Translations under genes and position numbers: made by a program
In this document: piece by piece, positions 5,479-30,500 of the stretch
Position numbering within the stretch: the first letter of the stretch is position 1
Layout of the letters: each line of letters opens with the position of its first letter
The notes under the pieces: model-generated
The model's database searches: none
What the model saw: the letters and a program-made list of their open reading frames with translations, nothing else
Told to the model about the DNA's origin: nothing
NCBI GenBank assembly: GCA_038858525.1
Contig: JAWCFL010000004.1
Coordinates: 30,001 to 62,000, forward strand
Direction: 5' to 3'
DNA from: Candidatus Jordarchaeales archaeon
GTDB taxonomy: Archaea > Asgardarchaeota > Jordiarchaeia > Jordiarchaeales > Freyrarchaeaceae
Length of the DNA stretch: 32,000 bases

Positions 5479-5973
5479 TTGAATGAAGTAGTGGTCTCCG
5501 TGAAAATACCCCGTGACGTCCTCATGTTCCTTGAAAAAGAGGTCAGTCGAGGGAAAAGGTCAGAGTTCATAAGGCAAGCCATAATAGAAAAGCTCGAAGG
5601 TAGATGTATTAAAGTGGAAAACAGCTTCCCCAGTAACGTCATTCTCAGCAGATTAGAGGAACTCGAGAAAAGGATCATACATTTGGAGAACGCTTTATCC
5701 TCCAAGAATTCTGGTAAAGATAACGCAGCTCACCCGCTTTACCAGCTTTGCAAAGATGAAAACGAGCGAAAAATAGTCGAATATATCCTTAGTGAAGGGG
5801 GGGCCACCACTCGCGAACTGGAAAAGGTGGTCGGCCTCAAGAGGAGACAGATCCTTAACAGGGTGAGGGAACTAGCATCAAGAGCTGAGAAACAACTAGG
5901 AAAACCCATGCTTGTCTACGTGCGGGCCCGCGTAAGAGGCAAGCGGCAGGCATGGTGGCTCAACAGCCCATAA
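5479..5973 (+). CDS. Putative transcription factor: N-terminal ribbon-helix-helix, coiled coil, C-terminal winged HTH
   Basis: VVSVKIP..V...L......RSEFIRQAI (RHH); LSRLEELEKRIIHLE (coiled coil); ERKIVEYI...GGATTRELEKVVGL.RRQILNRV (wHTH). Confidence 0.75.
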   Translation: MNEVVVSVKIPRDVLMFLEKEVSRGKRSEFIRQAIIEKLEGRCIKVENSFPSNVILSRLEELEKRIIHLENALSSKNSGKDNAAHPLYQLCKDENERKIVEYILSEGGATTRELEKVVGLKRRQILNRVRELASRAEKQLGKPMLVYVRARVRGKRQAWWLNSP

Positions 5974-6015
5974 CTGGTAAATTTTATTTGGCTCTTAATT
6001 CCACTTTTAATTGGC

Positions 6016-6143
6016 GGGTCTGTGGCCTAGCCAGGATATGCTATAAACGCCTAAAGGCGCCGGCCTCCGGAGGGGTGTCTCGAGGAAAGCCGGAAAGCGA
6101 GGGTTCAAATCCTAAAATGGTGAAACTCCCTCCAGACCCGCCA
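6016..6143 (+). tRNA. tRNA-Arg(CCG) with three introns (21/22: 6039-6054; 37/38: 6071-6087; 59/60: 6110-6126); CCA encoded
   Basis: Spliced 78-nt sequence: GGGTCTG TG GCCT AGCCAGGATA AGGC G CCGGC CT CCG GA GCCGG AAAGC GAGGG TTCAAAT CCCTC CAGACCC G CCA. All four stems pair. Each intron has a BHB or relaxed BHB; 59/60 is perfect (TTCA/TGAA). Confidence 0.93.
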
Positions 6144-6197
6144 ATTAATCCAAACTTTTAAGCTACGCTACGTTAACCTTCATGAGGTAATGTTTTA

Positions 6198-8090
6198 GTG
6201 GTGACAATAATGATCCTAACAGTTAAAGCGAAAATTGCAGATGCACTTTGGCATACGCTGAAAAAACTGGGCTTCTCAGTTTCGAGGGATGACGTATCGG
6301 AGCTACCTGAGCCCCCTGACCCTAGGCTAGGCGACATCTCCTCAGCTATTCCTCTTAAGCTTGCCCGCTCTCTGAAGCGTAAGCCGCTCGAAATAGCTCA
6401 GTCTATCGCTTTGAACTTTGAAAAGCCGGAGTTTGTTGAACGCGTCGAGGCCGCAGAGCCAGGATACGTAAATTTTTTCCTCGATAAGGTGAAGCTTGCA
6501 GGCGATGTTATAAGGACTGTTATGGAGGAAGGTGACCGGTACGGTTTCAGTAACGTAGGGGGAAAAAGAAAAGTTATTGTTGAGCATACCGCTGTCAATC
6601 CTACTAAACCATTACATATAGGTCATTTGAGGAATGCCGTCTTGGGTGACGTTGTCGCGAACCTATTAAGAGCTTGCGGCTGGAGGGTTGAAGTTCAGAA
6701 CTACATTGACGATCTGGGTCGCCAGATGGGTGTTTTAGTATGGGCTTTCCTAAACAACCTGCACCTAGAAGTTCCAAGAGAAAGAGACATGAAACTTGAC
6801 TTCTGGTATGGATTAGTATACGCCAAGGCTGCTCAGAAGCTTAAGGAGAACCCTGAACTGGAAGCTGAAGTGGATGAAGTTATGAAGCGAATGCTTAATG
6901 AAGATGAAGTGGCGCTCTTCAGCAGGAAACTCGCCGAGATGTGCGTAGAGTCAAACCTTGAAACCGCCGCTAGGGCAGGAATAACGTATGACCTGTTAGT
7001 TTGGGAGAGCGACATTTCAAAAGCCCACCTTTGGGAGCACGCCATGAATCTTCTCGAAAAATCAGAGCATTTCGTCTGGGAGACTGAAGGGGAATATAAA
7101 GGCTGCTTCGTTGCGAAGCTCAGTCACCTAGAAGAATTCAAGGACAAAAAGAACCCCGACAAGGTTCTCGTCAGATCCAATATGGTTCCAACATACGTGG
7201 CACACGACATAGCCTATCAGCTCTGGAAGTTCGGCATCCTTGAAACAGGCATGAAGTACCGCCCCTGGCATAGGCAGTTCAACGGGAAAGAACTCTGGAC
7301 AACTTCACCCATCCTCGCCACGCCCTCAAACAACTTCGCGAAAGCAGACGTCGTGATAAACGTCGTGGGGTATGAGCAAGAATACCTACAAAAAACGGTC
7401 AAAGTCTGCCTGAAGCTCCTAGGCCACTTGGAGCAAGCTGAAAACTCCATACATCTCTCATACAAACACGTTCAGCTCATGGGCGAAAAATTTTCTGGAA
7501 GAGAGGGAAACTGGGTGGGATACCACGCTGACGCCGTCATAAATCAGACCCTGCTGTGCGCATACGAGCAGGTAAGCAAAAACCTCCCTGAAGCATCAGA
7601 ACTCGAGAAGAGACAAATAGCGGAAATAGTGGCTGTGGGCGCTGTGAGATACTGGCTCACGAAGTTCAGCACAGAGCAAACAATAATATTCGACTATGGA
7701 AAAGTCACAAATTTCGACGGCGAAACCGGGCCGTACATACAATACGCGGCGGTGCGGGCGAAAAGCATACTTGAAAAAGCAGGAGAAACCCCCAGCCCGG
7801 AAATCAACCCAGAGAAACTCCTAGGTTCAAGAGAAATTGATCTCATTAAACACATAGCAAAGTTCCCTGAAGTGGTCCAAATATCAGCTAGGAACCTTAA
7901 ACCGAACATCCTAGCAGAATACACTTACCAGCTGGCAGTACGTTTCAACAAGTTCTACGAGGAATGCCCAGTTCTTACAGTCGACGATCCGGAGACCAGA
8001 AAAGCCCGCCTCGCCCTCGTACAGGCCGTTCTACAATCACTAAAGAACGCCATGAAAATACTCGGCATAGAAATACCGCCAAAAATGTAA
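6198..8090 (+). CDS. argS: Arginyl-tRNA synthetase
   Basis: NPTKPLHIGHLRNAVLGD (HIGH), GYVNF, NYIDDLGRQ, F.G.TGPYIQYA..RAKSIL and C-terminal DALR-type anticodon-binding domain. Confidence 0.97.
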   Translation: MVTIMILTVKAKIADALWHTLKKLGFSVSRDDVSELPEPPDPRLGDISSAIPLKLARSLKRKPLEIAQSIALNFEKPEFVERVEAAEPGYVNFFLDKVKLAGDVIRTVMEEGDRYGFSNVGGKRKVIVEHTAVNPTKPLHIGHLRNAVLGDVVANLLRACGWRVEVQNYIDDLGRQMGVLVWAFLNNLHLEVPRERDMKLDFWYGLVYAKAAQKLKENPELEAEVDEVMKRMLNEDEVALFSRKLAEMCVESNLETAARAGITYDLLVWESDISKAHLWEHAMNLLEKSEHFVWETEGEYKGCFVAKLSHLEEFKDKKNPDKVLVRSNMVPTYVAHDIAYQLWKFGILETGMKYRPWHRQFNGKELWTTSPILATPSNNFAKADVVINVVGYEQEYLQKTVKVCLKLLGHLEQAENSIHLSYKHVQLMGEKFSGREGNWVGYHADAVINQTLLCAYEQVSKNLPEASELEKRQIAEIVAVGAVRYWLTKFSTEQTIIFDYGKVTNFDGETGPYIQYAAVRAKSILEKAGETPSPEINPEKLLGSREIDLIKHIAKFPEVVQISARNLKPNILAEYTYQLAVRFNKFYEECPVLTVDDPETRKARLALVQAVLQSLKNAMKILGIEIPPKM

Positions 8091-8130
8091 TGTAAAAAGG
8101 TAATCATCTAAGTTTGGTGGGCGTTGTCAA

Positions 8131-8144
8131 AGAAAAGTTTAATA
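8131..8144 (+). promoter_or_regulatory. BRE/TATA promoter of tRNA-Arg(GCG)
   Basis: AGAAAAG-TTTAATA; the TATA box at 8138-8144 is centred about 28 nt upstream of G1 (8169). Confidence 0.6.
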
Positions 8145-8168
8145 CACCTGCTTTCTGTTTCTAAAAAT

Positions 8169-8337
8169 GGGCCCCTCGCCCAGCTAGGATACTCAAAGCC
8201 TGACAGGGCGCCAACATTTAAGTGGCGCACGCCTGCGGTGGCTTCAGCGCAGAGAGCTGGTGGTCGCAGGGCGGAGGACTTCTCCTCCCGGCTAAGGGTT
8301 CAAATGGGGGTTCCCAGGGCAGATCCCGCGGGGCCCG
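8169..8337 (+). tRNA. tRNA-Arg(GCG) with five introns (20a/21: 8191-8204; 29/30: 8214-8230; 37/38: 8239-8254; 50/51: 8268-8295; 58/59: 8304-8322); CCA not encoded
   Basis: Spliced 75-nt sequence: GGGCCCC TC GCCC AGCTAGGATA GGGC G CCAGC CT GCG GA GCTGG TGGTC GCGGG TTCAAAT CCCGC GGGGCCC G. All stems are fully paired and each junction has a 4-bp BHB central helix. C9 is atypical. Confidence 0.9.
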
Positions 8338-8422
8338 TTAACTCTCTTATAAGCTCTTTTTGAGATTTACAGGAACTGAAAGCATTAGACATATATCTCA
8401 GAGCTCTGAGGAGGCGCTTTTC

Positions 8423-9484
8423 ATGTCGCTTACCCTCGTTTACAATGAATTATATGGCTCTCTTCATGTCCCGTTATTCCTTAAGCCTTGGATGGAGAGC
8501 TTTGAGCGTCCTGAAAGAGTGTCGCTGACGATGTGCAAGTTAAGGGGGTACGGGCTTCTAGAGTACTTAAACGTTGTTTCCCCGCATCCAGCCTCGAAGG
8601 AGGACATATTAAGCGTTCATAGTCCATATCTTTATGACTTAGTGAGAGAACTCTCCAAGTTTGAAAGGGGAGAGGTGGGCTCGTCCAGCTTCACGTCTAA
8701 GGATACGTTTAGGCTTGCCTGTCTGGCTGCTGGGGGTGCTATAGAAGCAGTCGACTTGGTTTTGGAGGGGAAATGTCGTAGCTCGTTGGCATTGGTTCGT
8801 CCTCCGGGGCATCATGCTGGTCAAAGTCACGCTTCAGGGCTCTGTTTTTTTAATAACGCGGCTGTGGCTGTAAAAAGTCTTCAGCGTAGAGGAGTTAGAA
8901 AGGTGCTGATTTTGGACGTTGATAGTCATCCAGGTGATGGGACCGCGCAGATATTCTACTCGGACCCCTCTGTTCTGGTTCTTTCCTTTCACGAGTATGA
9001 CCAAGAGGTCGCGGGCGCCGGGTGGCTGGACGAAAAAGGATATGAAAAGGGGGAAGGCTACACGATAAACATCCCGCTACCCTTAGGGCTTCGAGGAAAA
9101 CCTTACTTATGGGTTTTCGAGAGGGTTTTTCATAACGTGGCAGAATGGTTTAAACCCGACTTCGTAGTCGTGTCGCTCGGCTTAGACACGCACTACGATG
9201 ACCCCGTCGGAAATCTTTTCCTCCAAGCGTTAGACCATGCCGAGATCACCGGGCACATACTCTCAATCGCTGATGAATACTGCAGAGGCCGCGTCTCCTT
9301 CATACTTGAGGGAGGATATAGCTTACTCGCTCTCCCCCTCTCTGTGGCTGCTGTAATATCACGTATAGTGGACTCAAAAATAGAGTACTACGATGAAATC
9401 GAGCGTGGCGGTTCTCCCCCCCAACACCTCAAGCGCCTCGTAGCATCTTTACTTGACCGTATCAGTAGCTACACTGGTCCTTAG
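8423..9484 (+). CDS. Histone deacetylase family (class II-like acetylpolyamine/protein deacetylase)
   Basis: RPPGHHA, GLCFFNN, DVDSHPGDGT, SLGLDTH..DP and LEGGY are intact. ATG 8423 follows GAGGAGG. Confidence 0.93.
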   Translation: MSLTLVYNELYGSLHVPLFLKPWMESFERPERVSLTMCKLRGYGLLEYLNVVSPHPASKEDILSVHSPYLYDLVRELSKFERGEVGSSSFTSKDTFRLACLAAGGAIEAVDLVLEGKCRSSLALVRPPGHHAGQSHASGLCFFNNAAVAVKSLQRRGVRKVLILDVDSHPGDGTAQIFYSDPSVLVLSFHEYDQEVAGAGWLDEKGYEKGEGYTINIPLPLGLRGKPYLWVFERVFHNVAEWFKPDFVVVSLGLDTHYDDPVGNLFLQALDHAEITGHILSIADEYCRGRVSFILEGGYSLLALPLSVAAVISRIVDSKIEYYDEIERGGSPPQHLKRLVASLLDRISSYTGP

Positions 9485-9832
9485 CTCAGCTGCAACTCTT
9501 TCAGCAAGCTTCTCCATGTTCCTGACAACTTCATCTATCTCATTCCTCGCTGCGCCCTCTAAATGTACGCCTCCGACCGCCACCACTACTTTACCAGTCG
9601 CCTTGGCAACTTTTTCCGTCATGATACGTGTAAGCACATCGTCTCTGTGATATGGAAGCGTTATGGTTGAAGTTGAGACAGACCACTCATTATCCTTCTG
9701 CTTGTAGGGCACCGCTACGGAGACCGCCCCAATATGTGTTTCATCCCCACCACCTATGCAGAAAACTAATCCGTCTCCCAACTTTACTAGACTACACCAA
9801 ACTGCTGTCCGTCCTTTACCTTCAAACCACAT
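9449..9832 (-). CDS. LpdD-like (prenylated-flavin chaperone-like) small protein
   Basis: GGG..THIGAV, HRDD and GGVHL..A...EI motifs recalled for the LpdD family. The 3' end overlaps the convergent HDAC gene by 36 nt. Confidence 0.7.
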   Translation of the reverse strand: MWFEGKGRTAVWCSLVKLGDGLVFCIGGGDETHIGAVSVAVPYKQKDNEWSVSTSTITLPYHRDDVLTRIMTEKVAKATGKVVVAVGGVHLEGAARNEIDEVVRNMEKLAERVAAELRTSVATDTVK

Positions 9833-9845
9833 CCGTTCACGCTCC

Positions 9846-11762
9846 CTACTCTATGACGCCCATCCTCCTAGCCGTTGATGCAAGCTCAAGCTCAACAAGT
9901 TTACTCTCGGTTGGCACCCCGCTTTCAGGATCCCATCCTCGCTCAGCATAGTAGTCGTCGAGAAGTTTCTCGGCGTCATCAACCCCTATCCTCTTACTTC
10001 TGTAATAATCCATGAGCGTCATCGTTATGTTGCCCCCTCTAAGCGGCTCCTTTAGCCACCGCTCAGGGAAAGCGTCATCTCTCCTAGAAAACCCTTCCCG
10101 TACATTAAGTAACTTTAGAAGGTTCCAAACACGCTCTCCAGTTTTTATGAGTTTCTTTGGCGGCATCTTTATTCCTGTAGCTGAAGCGTAAAGCTCAGCC
10201 AGAGAGAAAACCGAGTATCCTTGAGTTATTGGCTGACGGCAACAAACTCCTAGTGACGTAAGAAGCGCGTACCAGTCTTCAACGTAACGCGTCATCCTTG
10301 CAACGTTAAAGTAAGGCACGAATATTCTTCTTATAGCATCCTTAGGGACTCCTATCCGGTCACAGAACTTTTTTAGCTTGCTAGTGCTGGCGCCAATCAT
10401 GAATGTTGGAGAAAAGCCTGGAATATAATGTCCCCCCATCGGATTAACTATTACTTCGAACGCCTCAGTGCCAAAGTTAAACCGTCCATCAAGCGGAGGG
10501 TCCATGCCCTTAACGTTAACTACTTCTTCGATAAGGCCTCTACCAAACTTCGCAGCAGCCCTCACGGGCCCCTCAGCTAAAATGCCGCCCAACCCATCTC
10601 TTAAAGAAACCGCTCTGATCAGATTCACTGTCTCCTCGAAGCCGTCATCACCGAACTCAACTTTCACGTAACCTTTCCTTCTTAGAACTCTAACTAACTC
10701 TACCGTGGAAGCTAGCGTAGTATAATCTATTCCATACTTGTTAGCTAGATAGTAGCAGTAAGCAATTTTTCCGCCGTCACCAACTTTGCAGCGCGCCCCG
10801 AAGGCATAGGCAGGCCCAAAGAACTGAGACATGCACACTTCTCCCTCCTCTACTCCTGTGAATTTCGCGATAAGCCTGTCTCCAACGGGGCAAGAAGGGC
10901 AGGACAGCGTTTTCTCTTTAACTTTTTCAACAAAAACTTTTGGTCCAAACAGCGTTTCAGCCTCCTTCCCTGGCATGAGCCCCCTCCATCCGTCGCACGG
11001 CCACGCCTTTATCAGCCCTGTTCTAAACTCCCAGCATGTCATCGAGCCAAATCTGACCCACATGTCGTAGTGAGGATTACTACATATCTCTTCAACAGTT
11101 ACTAATGCCTTTTCAGAAAAGGCTTTTTCATCAGCTACCTCCACTCCTCCTTCCCCCCTAACAACTACTGCCTTCAGGTTCTTAGACCCCATAACGGCGC
11201 CCATCCCCCCTCTTCCAAGACTCGAGCACGAGTCCATTATGGCAACGGAAAACCTAACCAGTTTCTCCCCAGCTCTCCCAATAGTCAAAACCCCACATGG
11301 CCCATACCGCCCCTGCAGTTCCTCTGTGACATCGTAAACGTCTCGCCCCCAAAGGTCCCCTGCATCCAGAATCTCCGCACCACCATCAAAGACATCCAAG
11401 TACACTGGCTTCTTAGAGCGTCCCTTAATCACCACATGGTCGTAGCCTGCCGCCTTCATCATGAGCCCGAACACCACCCCCCCAGAGGCAAAGCCATATG
11501 TTTCCGTGAGCGGGAACTTACAGACCGCTGAAACCCTTACTGCTCCAGGCGCCATAGTGCCAACAAGCGGGCCAACACCAAGCACCAGGTAAGCGTCAGG
11601 AGAATACGGGTGAACCCAACGCTCAGTAAGATCCGATGCAAGCTTCAAGTTCCCCCCTAACCCGCCGAGGAAAAAATCGATAAGTGACTCGCTCAACTCG
11701 ACGCTTTTCACCTTTCTCTTCGAAAGGTCAACCATAAGAATTCTACCAGCGTAACCGTACAC
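9846..11762 (-). CDS. aor: Tungsten-dependent aldehyde:ferredoxin oxidoreductase family protein (variant active site)
   Basis: YAGRIL.VDLS, GRGGMGAVMGSKNLKAV, CxxC, G.SR.DD.FPER and DDYY..RGWD..G.PT motifs. GTG start with GAGGTG SD. Confidence 0.92.
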   Translation of the reverse strand: MYGYAGRILMVDLSKRKVKSVELSESLIDFFLGGLGGNLKLASDLTERWVHPYSPDAYLVLGVGPLVGTMAPGAVRVSAVCKFPLTETYGFASGGVVFGLMMKAAGYDHVVIKGRSKKPVYLDVFDGGAEILDAGDLWGRDVYDVTEELQGRYGPCGVLTIGRAGEKLVRFSVAIMDSCSSLGRGGMGAVMGSKNLKAVVVRGEGGVEVADEKAFSEKALVTVEEICSNPHYDMWVRFGSMTCWEFRTGLIKAWPCDGWRGLMPGKEAETLFGPKVFVEKVKEKTLSCPSCPVGDRLIAKFTGVEEGEVCMSQFFGPAYAFGARCKVGDGGKIAYCYYLANKYGIDYTTLASTVELVRVLRRKGYVKVEFGDDGFEETVNLIRAVSLRDGLGGILAEGPVRAAAKFGRGLIEEVVNVKGMDPPLDGRFNFGTEAFEVIVNPMGGHYIPGFSPTFMIGASTSKLKKFCDRIGVPKDAIRRIFVPYFNVARMTRYVEDWYALLTSLGVCCRQPITQGYSVFSLAELYASATGIKMPPKKLIKTGERVWNLLKLLNVREGFSRRDDAFPERWLKEPLRGGNITMTLMDYYRSKRIGVDDAEKLLDDYYAERGWDPESGVPTESKLVELELASTARRMGVIE

Positions 11763-11949
11763 TCATCTTCACCTCATTATTAGCTAAGCTAGCAATGGCT
11801 CCCCTCAGAAGCCCCAATACATCCACAGCCTCAAGAAACATTCAGATGACCACCCTCAACTTCGACCAGTAGCCTGACCAACAATAAACTCCCAGCCAAC
11901 AAAAAACAGAAAACTAAAAAAGATTTCTCTCATAATCAAATGCTAAATG

Positions 11950-11981
11950 TAAATGCATAACAAGTTAAATGCATAACAAGT
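11950..11981. repeat. Perfect tandem direct repeat, 2 x 16 bp (TAAATGCATAACAAGT)
   Basis: Copies at 11950-11965 and 11966-11981, with a partial TAAATG at 11944-11949; upstream of aor. Confidence 0.9.
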
Positions 11982-12216
11982 AAAACCCACCACTTAGCGC
12001 AGTTAAACAAAAGGAGAACGGGACAGTTCACATGTTTTCGCTCTCCTCCTTGTCTATTAGTTACGTATTCAACGTCTCCCCCCCTAATGTAGAGGGCGGC
12101 AAGTCGGACCTGCACCCTCACTTAGGGAACAGAAGCCATAAAGGCTATACTAGAAAACGTCTAGAGTTCATCTACCTTGAAAACTGCTGACAAAAAGCAA
12201 GGAAAACATGGAATAA

Positions 12217-12354
12217 TGGTGGACCCCGCGGGATTTACTCAACCTTTTTTCTGGGTTTTTGAATTCGCGGCCCTCTTCAGGGCACCCGCGGCCTCCCGGG
12301 TGCGAACCGGGTGCTCATGGCGCCACAGGCTCTACCAGGCTGAGCTAGGGGCCC
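12217..12354 (-). tRNA. tRNA-Ala(CGC) with three introns (22/23: 12331-12316; 53/54: 12284-12264; 58/59: 12258-12235); CCA encoded
   Basis: Spliced 77-nt sequence: GGGCCCC TA GCTC AGCCTGGTA GAGC A CCCGG TT CGC AC CCGGG AGGCC GCGGG TTCAAAT CCCGC GGGGTCC A CCA. It has the G3:U70 Ala identity pair and A73, and a BHB central helix at each junction. Confidence 0.93.
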
Positions 12355-12384
12355 ACCATCAAGAATTACCCATTAAAAAGAACA

Positions 12385-12398
12385 TATTTAACTTTATC
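12385..12398 (-). promoter_or_regulatory. BRE/TATA promoter of tRNA-Ala(CGC)
   Basis: Minus strand GATAAAG-TTAAATA, 31-37 nt upstream of G1, consistent with a short 5' leader. Confidence 0.5.
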
Positions 12399-12623
12399 TC
12401 CTCTCTCACTAAATGGGATAATTTATTTGATGACTCTTCTCTTTTGCAGTGATTAATCCTGCTAGTGAAACTCTCTTCGCGCGGCTTCATTGAATAAGCC
12501 TAGAAGAAGAGATTTTTCTTTGTGAGAACGCTTTTGGAAACGTTAAAGTTAAATATTGAGAGTATTCCAAACTACCTCCGTTACTCCAAATGGATAAATT
12601 TTCTAAAAGAGAGGCGACTTGAA

Positions 12624-27587: not shown

Positions 27588-30500
27588 CTACCCCTCACCG
27601 ATCAGTATCCGGATTGGGTTTGGCTTAAAATATCTTTTCCTGTTTTTGTTATCCCTGAAAATTACCATGGGCTGATATTCCACTTCTTGCTCCTTCTCCG
27701 CCACGATTTTTATCTCTAAGCTAATCTTTTCCCAAGAGGCTAGCTCTCTCCTAATCACCATGTCGCCATCTTTAACTGTTTCCGCTTTGCCCATAAACTT
27801 GAAACCTTGCGGGACAGCATTTTCCAATCTCTCTATAATAGCGTTCGCGTCTCCGATGTTCGTCAGCTCAATCTTTACTGTGATCCTGTCTCCTACTTTG
27901 AAAAGGCTCCTATCCGCCGGCTCGTTAACCCTCACGACAACGAATCCATCTCTTAAATTCTCCATATCCTCCCTGGAAACTCCCTCACCAAGAACGGCCT
28001 CTAAGTATCTTCTCCTTGCCTCTTGCTCCCTTAACTTCTGAATTTTTTCTTCAACTTCCCTTTCAAGCCCAATGTAGCCTGCATCCGAAAACTTCTCCTT
28101 AGCTTTGTTATAGCTCTCTTCGGCAAGCGCATAATATTTCTCAGCGGCTTCACCCGCGCTCTCTAACTTCTTAATGTATCTCTCTCCATCAAGGAGATAC
28201 CCTAATCCCTCAACATACTTGGCATAATTGCTCAGTCCAGCTTCTACAAAGAACTTTAAGCTTCTCTCGAGATGCATTCTAGCCTCAATGTAACTGTCCT
28301 CCTTTTCTTCCTCTCCTTCAATATACTCCAGAAACTTACGCCACCCATAGCATAAATCAGTAAACCCGAAAGCCGCATTTTTCATCTTGTCAGTTACAAG
28401 TATCTTGGTGCTTTCATTGAAGAGACTTGCAGCCTCCAAGAACTCATCATGGGCCCCTAGCTGGCCCCTGATAAACCGCTCCAAGCCTTGCGCGAAAAGC
28501 ACATAGCCATTCGCTTTCTCCCAGTCTCCCTCCCCAAGCTTTGCCGCCTCCCCCAATGCCTTCGCAGCCATAGAAAACTTAACGAGTGCAGGCGAATACG
28601 CTCCCTCGGCATACAAAGCCAACCCCTCCTCCAAGTGCTCCTTTCCTCTACATAGCCTCAAGAGCGCCTCGGCTTTTTTATCGCCCCCCATCTCTCTTAA
28701 CGCTTTAAGTCGTTCGCTTGCCGTCTTCAACCGCTCTAACGCCTCACGCGGCTTATCCATGCTTACATCCTCTGCCTCTAGAAACTCGCTTAAGGACTGA
28801 TAGAACATGGCCTCATGCTTGTTCTCCTTTAGCAACAGCTCGCCTCCTTTCCTAAAATAGGATGCAGCCTCGGAAAGTCGGCTTTTCAGCAGCTCCTTGC
28901 CCTTCTCAATGCTGATCCTCGCCTCAACACTTTTCATTCTCTCCTTTATGTCTTCTTCTTCTCTCCCCTCAATCATTATTTTGTTAAACCTTTCAAGAGC
29001 CTGAATGTAGTATTCTGATGCTTGTGCGTAGTTGCCTTTTTCGTCCTCAAGCTCCGCCAACTTGACTAGTGCCTCCCCCTCCATTTCCTTCCAGTCCATG
29101 CTTGACGCTACTCTCACAGCCTCCAAATATTCCTGCCGAGCTCTTAAGTAGCCTTCCCCCCCTTTCTCTCGCCTCCATATTTCTCTCTGAATGTTCCCTG
29201 AAAGAATAAATGACCCAGCAGCGCCTACCAGGTCCTCGGCCGAAATAAAGCTTTCACGCGCCTTTTTAGCCACTTCTCCAGCCTTCTCAAACGCGCCTGC
29301 CTGCCCGCACTTACCGAGCATGTAATATGTTTCAGCTAAACAGTACAAGTAATCTCCCCTTCTCAGTCTCTCCTCCTCGTACTCCAGCGCCACTTCACCA
29401 TATTCTACAGCCTTCTCTAAGAGCTCTCTTCTCCTTCCCTCATCCACCTCCGCCTCAGCTGCAGCTGCCAAGTAACTAGCCACACTACCATAAAACTCGC
29501 CGATAAACGCCTCCTCAGGTACCTTTCTCACTTCATCCAAAGCTTCCCTGCTATAGGAAGCCCCATCCCTAATCAACCTAATCTTCAACGCATCGTTCTC
29601 AACCAATTTAATATACTCTGATATCACTCTTGCCATCATGATAAGAACCTTTATATTGACATCACTCTTCATCTGGGCTCTCGCATACATGTACGCTTTT
29701 TTCAGTGCCTCATAGCATTCCTCCAACCTTTCTCTCTTCCTCCTGTTTGACAAAGTTATTTTAAAGGCTTCATAGCATGCCTTTGACAAGAGAAAATACG
29801 CATCTGCTGCTAAGCCACAGTCCCCCACCTCCTCAAGTCCCTTAGCCGCCTCCCTAGCATTGCTCAAGGCGTCATATGTTCTTCGTTGCCTCTCAGCGAA
29901 AAATCTCTCTCTTACAGCTGAATACAGCTCTAACAGTGTAAGATTATACTTATGAATCATCCTGCACCGTTCCTCCCTAGGCTCAGCAGTTAAGCCTTTC
30001 AATTGAAGTGGCGCACCCCGCTCCTCTAAGGCAAGCATCACGTCGCACAGTTCCCTCATCATTTCAAGGCAAAGGTAATGGCGAGGCCGCCTCGCCGCCT
30101 CAAAAAACCTCCCAGCTTTACTAAAGCTCTCAGCGGCTTTTCGCAGCACATTTAGTGCCTCCTCCCCCCTAAACCACGAGGCACTCCTCACACATGCAAT
30201 TCCGATCCAGAAAAGGAGAAGCCCTGCTTTCTCGCTCTCCTCAAGTCTCTCCAACCACTCAACACAAGTCTCTCCTTCCTTTATAACTTTCATACACGAA
30301 TCTTTTTTAGCTGGAAGATTCTCCTCCAAAAGGACTCTTAAAGCATTAATGAAATTCACGTAATAACTTATCCATACATCCCTCTCCACTCCCCTCAACG
30401 TGTAATCCTTAATGTAACCCTTTCTAACTTCATTGATCACTTCTATAGCCTCCTCGATCAAGCCTCTAAACCTATCCGCAGCCCGCTCAGACAACGCCTG

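Follow-up and report, generated by a model that had tools for sequence, protein, structure and literature searches.

Three tRNA genes with three, five and three predicted bulge-helix-bulge introns in a Jordarchaeia genome

The 32,000-nucleotide stretch of contig JAWCFL010000004.1 analysed here (positions 30,001 to 62,000 of the forward strand, assembly GCA_038858525.1; hereafter the window, position 1 being its first letter) raises the question of whether three loci that standard tools pass over are functional transfer RNA (tRNA) genes, each interrupted several times, and whether such interruption extends to the remaining tRNA genes of the genome. ARAGORN, with and without its intron mode, detected none of the three loci and reported no tRNA in the window, and Rfam gave no window match at the gathering score and no tRNA match over positions 5900-12500 even at E<=10. 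At these same loci 7-bp acceptor helices are visible. With high confidence, the three loci are considered to be functional tRNA genes that belong to a Jordarchaeia member of the Asgard archaea and carry three, five and three bulge-helix-bulge (BHB) introns whose removal is predicted to involve the splicing endonuclease EndA and RtcB. The loci were parsed by hand using cloverleaf rules only, with the removal of three, five and three internal segments, which defined the following genes.

6016..6143, + strand: tRNA-Arg(CCG) gene, nucleotides 1-73 at 6016-6140, three introns, 75-nucleotide mature body, encoded CCA at 6141-6143
8169..8337, + strand: tRNA-Arg(GCG) gene, 169 nucleotides, five introns, 75-nucleotide mature body, no encoded CCA
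12217..12354, - strand: tRNA-Ala(CGC) gene, nucleotides 1-73 at 12354-12220, three introns, 74-nucleotide mature body, encoded CCA at 12219-12217

The spliced products are 75-78 nucleotides long and are recognized by ARAGORN as perfect tRNA-Arg(ccg), tRNA-Arg(gcg) and tRNA-Ala(cgc), with the conserved nucleotides U8, A14, G18G19, U33, R37, GTTCAAAT and C61 kept in all three and the G3:U70 pair present in the tRNA-Ala product. An intron-aware parser written for this analysis, with which both strands of the whole window were scanned, recovers all 11 hand-defined introns unchanged and finds only the three loci (scores 23, 23 and 24, that of tRNA-Arg(CCG) being 23) and one weak match at 18, the top score in a reversed-genome control being 18.5. 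The individual introns, 14-28 nucleotides in size, are listed below in the order of transcription of each gene.

6039..6054, + strand: Arg(CCG) intron 1, 16 nucleotides, position 21/22 at the end of the D-loop, BHB core imperfect with 3/4 pairs
6071..6087, + strand: Arg(CCG) intron 2, 17 nucleotides, canonical position 37/38, core with 3/4 pairs (one C.A)
6110..6126, + strand: Arg(CCG) intron 3, 17 nucleotides, position 59/60 in the T-loop, BHB core 4/4
8191..8204, + strand: Arg(GCG) intron 1, 14 nucleotides, position 20a/21 in the D-loop, BHB core 4/4
8214..8230, + strand: Arg(GCG) intron 2, 17 nucleotides, position 29/30 in the 5' strand of the anticodon stem, full hBHBh' motif
8239..8254, + strand: Arg(GCG) intron 3, 16 nucleotides, position 37/38, BHB core 4/4
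8268..8295, + strand: Arg(GCG) intron 4, 28 nucleotides, position 50/51 in the 5' strand of the T-stem, BHB core 4/4, internal hairpin
8304..8322, + strand: Arg(GCG) intron 5, 19 nucleotides, position 58/59 in the T-loop, BHB core 4/4
12316..12331, - strand: Ala(CGC) intron 1, 16 nucleotides, position 22/23 in the 3' strand of the D-stem, BHB core 4/4
12264..12284, - strand: Ala(CGC) intron 2, 21 nucleotides, position 53/54, BHB core 4/4, inner helix 5 bp
12235..12258, - strand: Ala(CGC) intron 3, 24 nucleotides, position 58/59, BHB core 4/4

The BHB motif was tested as a 4-bp helix between two 3-nucleotide bulges, scored in every register that gives the same mature sequence; this geometry had no part in defining the junctions, and the exact intron positions are those fixed by the BHB registers. 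A perfect 4-bp core is found in exactly one sequence-equivalent register for 9/11 introns, as compared to 0.64 expected from the background rate of 0.0226 for 4/4 cores within the three genes (P = 1.7e-10). The most complete motif is that of the 29/30 intron of tRNA-Arg(GCG), with a 4/4 central helix flanked by outer and inner helices of 4 bp each. In the same gene the outer helix of the 37/38 intron is complete only in the context from which the 29/30 intron has been removed, and hence some order of splicing is likely. The sequence-only reading of this stretch had described all three tRNAs as multi-intron, with 11 introns at nine distinct positions and without obvious mutual similarity, and these observations were borne out: the hand parse and the intron-aware parser agree on the count, the positions are 20a/21, 21/22, 22/23, 29/30, 37/38 (twice), 50/51, 53/54, 58/59 (twice) and 59/60, and the best local alignment score among the introns (7) does not exceed the mean maximum of 7.1 in shuffled controls. 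Full-length intron copies elsewhere in the genome occur only in a tRNA-Ala(TGC) paralogue, with one additional 17-nucleotide partial match to the Ala 58/59 intron on contig C26; together with the lack of mutual similarity, this gives no sign of a mobile element.

Evidence that does not depend on the BHB motif was obtained from relatives. Related loci were retrieved through the gene for arginyl-tRNA synthetase (ArgRS), which lies between the two tRNA-Arg genes and was used for the taxonomic placement as well.

6198..8090, + strand: arginyl-tRNA synthetase gene (argS)

All Jordarchaeia/Freyarchaeia loci examined (L001-L008, L014) share the order tRNA-Arg(CCG), argS, tRNA-Arg(GCG); in L003 and L006, the Freyarchaeia loci for which the downstream tRNA-Arg gene was parsed, that gene is inverted. 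Orthologues of tRNA-Arg(CCG) were found upstream of argS in eight related loci. Among these, Ca. Jordarchaeum sp. LHC_1308 (L001) carries the identical set of three introns, five Freyarchaeia loci (L002-L004, L006, L008) have only 37/38 and 59/60 and lack 21/22, and L007 lacks both 21/22 and 37/38, having an intron at 51/52 instead; the 59/60 intron is found in all orthologues examined. For tRNA-Arg(GCG), all five introns recur in L014, where the mature sequence is also identical, the 37/38 intron is missing in L007, and L003 and L006 have only 20a/21, 29/30 and 53/54, being devoid of 37/38, 50/51 and 58/59, with the 20a/21 intron kept at the same site in all four loci. In the L007 orthologue (L007:4969-5116), moreover, both bases of the anticodon-stem pair C28-G42 are replaced to give T-A, a compensatory change that supports the predicted mature structure of tRNA-Arg(GCG). 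In the case of tRNA-Ala(CGC), all three introns are kept in genomes G002 and G004, while the congeneric G003 retains only 22/23 and is without 53/54 and 58/59. The mature sequences of the G002 and G003 orthologues are identical to that of the window gene, and the uninterrupted T-arm of G003 is identical to the predicted spliced product. The 22/23 intron is conserved in every Ala(CGC) and Ala(TGC) orthologue examined. Overall, for 7/11 introns there is at least one orthologue that lacks the insert. Introns diverge faster than exons, since comparison of the three genes with relatives revealed exon differences at 1/75, 0/74 and 3/74 sites, as against intron differences at 15/53, 11/63 and 20/62 aligned columns, plus indels.

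The genome encodes the enzymes that splicing of such precursors would need. Exactly two matches to PF01974, the EndA catalytic domain, are present, corresponding to paralogues of 191 and 198 residues that both match the N-terminal domain PF02778 and the C-terminal PF01974. The 191-residue protein aligns end to end with the catalytic alpha subunit of Aeropyrum pernix (3P1Z_B, E = 1.6e-48), with the Tyr-His-Lys triad conserved. Its Crenarchaea-specific (L1) loop aligns ungapped (QPLGIRKPKT versus QPLDVEKPRG) and includes the lysine equivalent to A. pernix K44, whereas the loop-less M. kandleri EndA (5X89) shows a 10-residue gap at this site in its first unit. In the 198-residue paralogue, aligned to 1A79, His125 is replaced by Ala, and from this loss of the catalytic His a structural, beta-like role is proposed. 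An RtcB gene is also present (601 bits). The pair of EndA paralogues fits the broad-specificity (alpha-beta)2 kind, with assembly and activity being predicted, in line with the permissive EndA that had been anticipated from the window. A side observation on the His-less paralogue (L021:1189-1785, + strand, on contig C43 of this genome, G000) is its acidic, low-complexity, Glu-rich N-terminal extension of about 25 residues.

In the proposed pathway, each exon-intron junction would fold as a 4-bp helix flanked by two 3-nucleotide bulges, both of which would then be cut, between nucleotides 2 and 3 of the bulge, by a heterotetrameric (alpha-beta)2 EndA. The L1 loop of the catalytic subunit, a feature with a function described in PMC5829648, would permit cleavage beyond the anticodon loop, and the exons would finally be joined by RtcB. 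Cleavage and ligation in vivo, the assembly of the subunits and an order of intron removal are what these genes and motifs would predict.

To place the three genes in a genomic context, tRNA genes were counted in the whole assembly (2.09 Mb, 92.7% complete). ARAGORN with its intron mode gave 11 tRNAs, several of them wrong, and the Rfam tRNA model gave eight matches, five of them above threshold. At strict settings the parser found 20 genes scoring at least 19.5, a level reached by none in the reversed-genome control. A relaxed-BHB pass, which is uncalibrated and in which matches below about 21 look like noise, added nine genes; junctions from this pass are doubtful for tRNA-Pro (C1:109836), tRNA-Val(CAC) and some class II tRNAs. 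The total thus comes to 29 tRNA genes with 74 introns, or 2.55 per gene, counts that are lower bounds given the home-made parser, and ARAGORN accepts all 29 spliced products. All 29 genes are interrupted, 22 of them (76%) by two or more introns, and only 9/74 introns are at 37/38, leaving 65 at non-canonical positions. Some 17 expected anticodons were not found in the census, and the comparison of the anticodon set is incomplete to that extent. This is the Jordarchaeia/Freyarchaeia phenotype: more than 90% of genes interrupted, over half of them multi-intron and the introns mostly located outside 37/38. The Rfam tRNA model yields only 5-12 matches in each of all 11 class members, one of which is represented by a closed 3.6-Mb genome. 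Hence, two further claims of the sequence-only reading hold, namely that intron richness extends beyond the window, with the other tRNAs of the genome interrupted as well, and that many tRNAs of the lineage are missed by automated annotation, as exemplified by none of three in the window and 5-12 per genome in the class.

Several of the genome-wide ARAGORN calls were rejected or reinterpreted. Two of them (on C7 and C11) lie inside protein-coding sequence. An intron-free Leu(gag) call (C5:44862-44946, - strand) is really tRNA-Arg(CCT) with a 10-nucleotide D-loop intron, and a Leu(cag) call (C3:53645-53747, + strand) is really tRNA-Val(CAC). An apparently intron-free 75-nucleotide tRNA-Met (C3:22477-22579, + strand) is a call of the initiator tRNA that ends inside a 28-nucleotide T-loop intron, within which lies a near-copy of the 3' exon.

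Several observations weigh against the interpretation of the three loci as BHB-spliced tRNA genes. The cores of the Arg(CCG) 21/22 and 37/38 introns are imperfect, with three of four pairs each, albeit with flanking helices, which in the case of 37/38 comprise 5 bp outside and 4 bp inside. In full-length minimum free energy folds the 4-bp core helix appears for only 1/11 introns, that at 29/30 of tRNA-Arg(GCG), and hence the naked precursor does not favour the BHB motif on thermodynamic grounds, which counts weakly against the interpretation. An exact search of metagenome contigs for the spliced tRNA-Arg(GCG) segment returned nothing. Four introns are shared by all relatives examined, so that their status rests on cloverleaf and BHB motif only, and the beta-like EndA is closer to the enzymes of M. 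jannaschii and M. kandleri than to the crenarchaeal beta subunit.

One alternative is that some inserts, chiefly those in the D-loop and D-stem and above all the imperfect Arg(CCG) 21/22 insert, are never spliced and are kept as enlarged loops. Besides its 3/4 core, this insert resembles those D-arm inserts that tRNAscan-SE keeps in the 'mature' tRNA, as described in a 2026 preprint (10.64898/2026.10.13.758758). However, it is absent from L007 and the Freyarchaeia loci, where the surrounding D-arm is conserved, it differs from its L001 counterpart at 4/16 positions as compared to 1/75 in the exons, and in the BHB register it is flanked by 3 bp of pairing on the outer as well as the inner side. 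Moreover, a working tRNA with a 26-nucleotide D-loop beside the A20 Arg identity position would, to our knowledge, be unprecedented. Retention of such inserts is regarded as very improbable.

Even less credence can be given to decayed pseudogenes or assembly artefacts, whose cloverleaves would arise from the freedom to delete segments. Up to five deletable segments do provide many degrees of freedom, and ARAGORN and Rfam fail to see a tRNA at any of the three loci. With the same freedom the parser reaches at most 18.5 on the reversed genome as against 23-24 at these loci, and BHB geometry fits at the significance given above without having been used for defining the junctions. In addition, independent metagenome-assembled genomes (MAGs) from other samples contain the same genes, with identical or nearly identical mature sequences, and ARAGORN, Rfam and the parser census reveal no intron-free tRNA in this genome that could replace the three. 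The three loci are therefore best treated as functional, BHB-interrupted tRNA genes, and the question turns to the lineage that carries them.

Identity of ArgRS is 89% to Ca. Jordarchaeum sp. LHC_1308 and 65-78% to other Jordarchaeia/Freyarchaeota MAGs, and NCBI taxonomy places Ca. Jordarchaeum in the class Jordarchaeia of the Asgard kingdom Promethearchaeati. By this sequence-based placement the genome is an Asgard archaeon of the class Jordarchaeia, from a genus near Ca. Jordarchaeum, which agrees with the earlier impression of an Asgard-like window not derived from Thermoproteales. One relative, L007 (JAPDJY010000057.1), was deposited as 'Thermoproteota archaeon isolate S9B3_HD70', although its ArgRS is 78% identical to that of the window and it shares the tRNA-Arg, argS, tRNA-Arg synteny and Jordarchaeia-type introns; its label is probably a misclassification at the time of deposit. 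A Thermoproteales or Thermoproteota origin of the genome, which would reduce its intron density to a known crenarchaeal phenomenon, has this label and the nearness of EndA alpha to the A. pernix enzyme in its favour, but it is hardly tenable, as the top ArgRS matches are Ca. Jordarchaeum and Jordarchaeia/Freyarchaeota MAGs, the scarcity of Rfam-detectable tRNAs is common to all 11 genomes of the class, Jordarchaeia/Freyarchaeota relatives included, and the L1 loop is known from both TACK and Asgard EndA (PMC5829648).

Comparison of the tRNA-Ala paralogues offers a view of how such introns may turn over. The tRNA-Ala(TGC) paralogue of this genome (C3:49448-49582, - strand) differs from the window tRNA-Ala(CGC) only at anticodon base 34, and all three introns of the two genes are 100% identical, which suggests a recent duplication or gene conversion. 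In G003, both tRNA-Ala(CGC) and tRNA-Ala(TGC) (L025 and L029, on its contig C1 at about 481.1 kb and 1088.3 kb) are without 53/54 and 58/59 and both have 22/23, whereas G004, from another genus of the family, has all three introns. The pattern in G003 gives the impression that the introns on the 3' side were lost recently and in concert. A more general proposal, in which intron turnover within the genus would be recent and concerted, with 3'-biased loss of multiple introns in multiple gene copies, is advanced only tentatively and is considered unlikely on balance. Such a pattern would fit gene conversion among the paralogues, or recombination with the reverse transcript of a tRNA spliced in part or in full, and if true, it would provide a concrete handle on intron gain and loss, a point that the 2026 preprint (10.64898/2026.10.13.758758) leaves open.

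The surroundings of the three genes are otherwise unremarkable. Between tRNA-Arg(GCG) and tRNA-Ala(CGC) lie three ordinary, intact protein genes.

8360-9484, + strand: histone-deacetylase-family protein
9449-9832, - strand: proteasome-assembly-chaperone-like protein
9846-11762, - strand: aldehyde:ferredoxin oxidoreductase

Among ten open reading frames checked around the tRNAs, no split protein gene was found, all being intact and of a single family. Read by eye, A/T-rich boxes with the pattern AAAGTT(T)AA(A)TA are located about 30 nucleotides upstream of tRNA-Arg(GCG) (8134-8145, + strand) and tRNA-Ala(CGC) (12384-12395, - strand), and a similar AAATTTTATTT box, likewise read by eye, is present upstream of tRNA-Arg(CCG) at 5979-5989. 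These boxes look like archaeal TATA and B recognition elements (BRE), and their occurrence before each tRNA gene suggests three separate transcription units.

The practical consequence of such gene structures is that fragmented tRNA genes escape routine annotation, and hence genome reports on these Asgard archaea understate the tRNA set, which may lead to a misjudgement of genome completeness or decoding capacity. They also bear on the origin of intron-rich genes and of permissive splicing in the closest archaeal relatives of eukaryotes, although this is already in print. What the window adds is a worked example with exact junctions, a tRNA-Arg(GCG) with five introns, and intron presence and absence between close relatives. 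Also worth keeping are the class-wide order of tRNA-Arg, argS and tRNA-Arg and the paired loss of T-arm introns in the two tRNA-Ala paralogues of G003.

Heavy interruption of tRNA genes in Jordarchaeia is a genome-wide state of the lineage that has already been published. Kaneta et al. 2018 (PMC5829648) described Asgard EndA as (alpha-beta)2 with the L1 loop and predicted hidden disrupted tRNAs in Asgard archaea, and no more than six tRNAs are listed where Ca. Jordarchaeum madagascariense was described. According to Valentin-Alvarado et al. 2024 (PMC11291895), 92-95% of the tRNA genes in complete genomes from Freyarchaeia and Atabeyarchaeia are interrupted, over half of them by multiple introns, often at non-canonical positions. 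Goswami et al., in the 2026 preprint (10.64898/2026.10.13.758758), found that tRNA genes of Jordiarchaeaceae and Freyrarchaeaceae average 2.0-2.4 intervening sequences, with a maximum of five and with 30% overlooked by tRNAscan-SE, chiefly in the D-arm. They also reported repeated independent gains and an enrichment of BHB motifs, and most Asgard genomes were found to encode two EndA paralogues. These repeated gains, together with the Asgard host identified here, bear out the suggestion of an intron expansion outside Thermoproteales that arose independently.

When set against Freyarchaeia/Jordarchaeia and Atabeyarchaeia, the present genome has 29/29 interrupted genes as compared to 92-98% published, 76% multi-intron genes as compared to 71-74%, and a mean of 2.55 introns as compared to 2.0-2.4. 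A maximum of five introns per gene, the dominance of D-arm and T-arm positions, the failure of standard tools to find the genes, and intron gains and losses that differ between close relatives are all shared with these published lineages. There is no difference in kind, and this is a further hot-spring-type, Jordarchaeum-related genome, possibly one included in the panels of those studies. With Thermoproteales (Sugahara et al. 2008, cited in PMC11291895), it has in common several non-canonical BHB introns per tRNA and an (alpha-beta)2 EndA with the loop. It differs from them in belonging to another phylum, in its higher density of 2.55 introns per gene, Pyrobaculum calidifontis as the richest reference having 1.54, and in that standard tools miss most of its tRNA genes, whereas tRNAscan-SE finds essentially all introns of Thermoproteales. 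With the (alpha-beta)2 EndA of A. pernix (3P1Z, 3AJV), the predicted enzyme shares the loop lysine of the alpha subunit (Lys44), the triad and a second paralogue devoid of the catalytic His; it differs in a second subunit that is nearer to M. jannaschii and M. kandleri and bears an acidic N-terminal extension.

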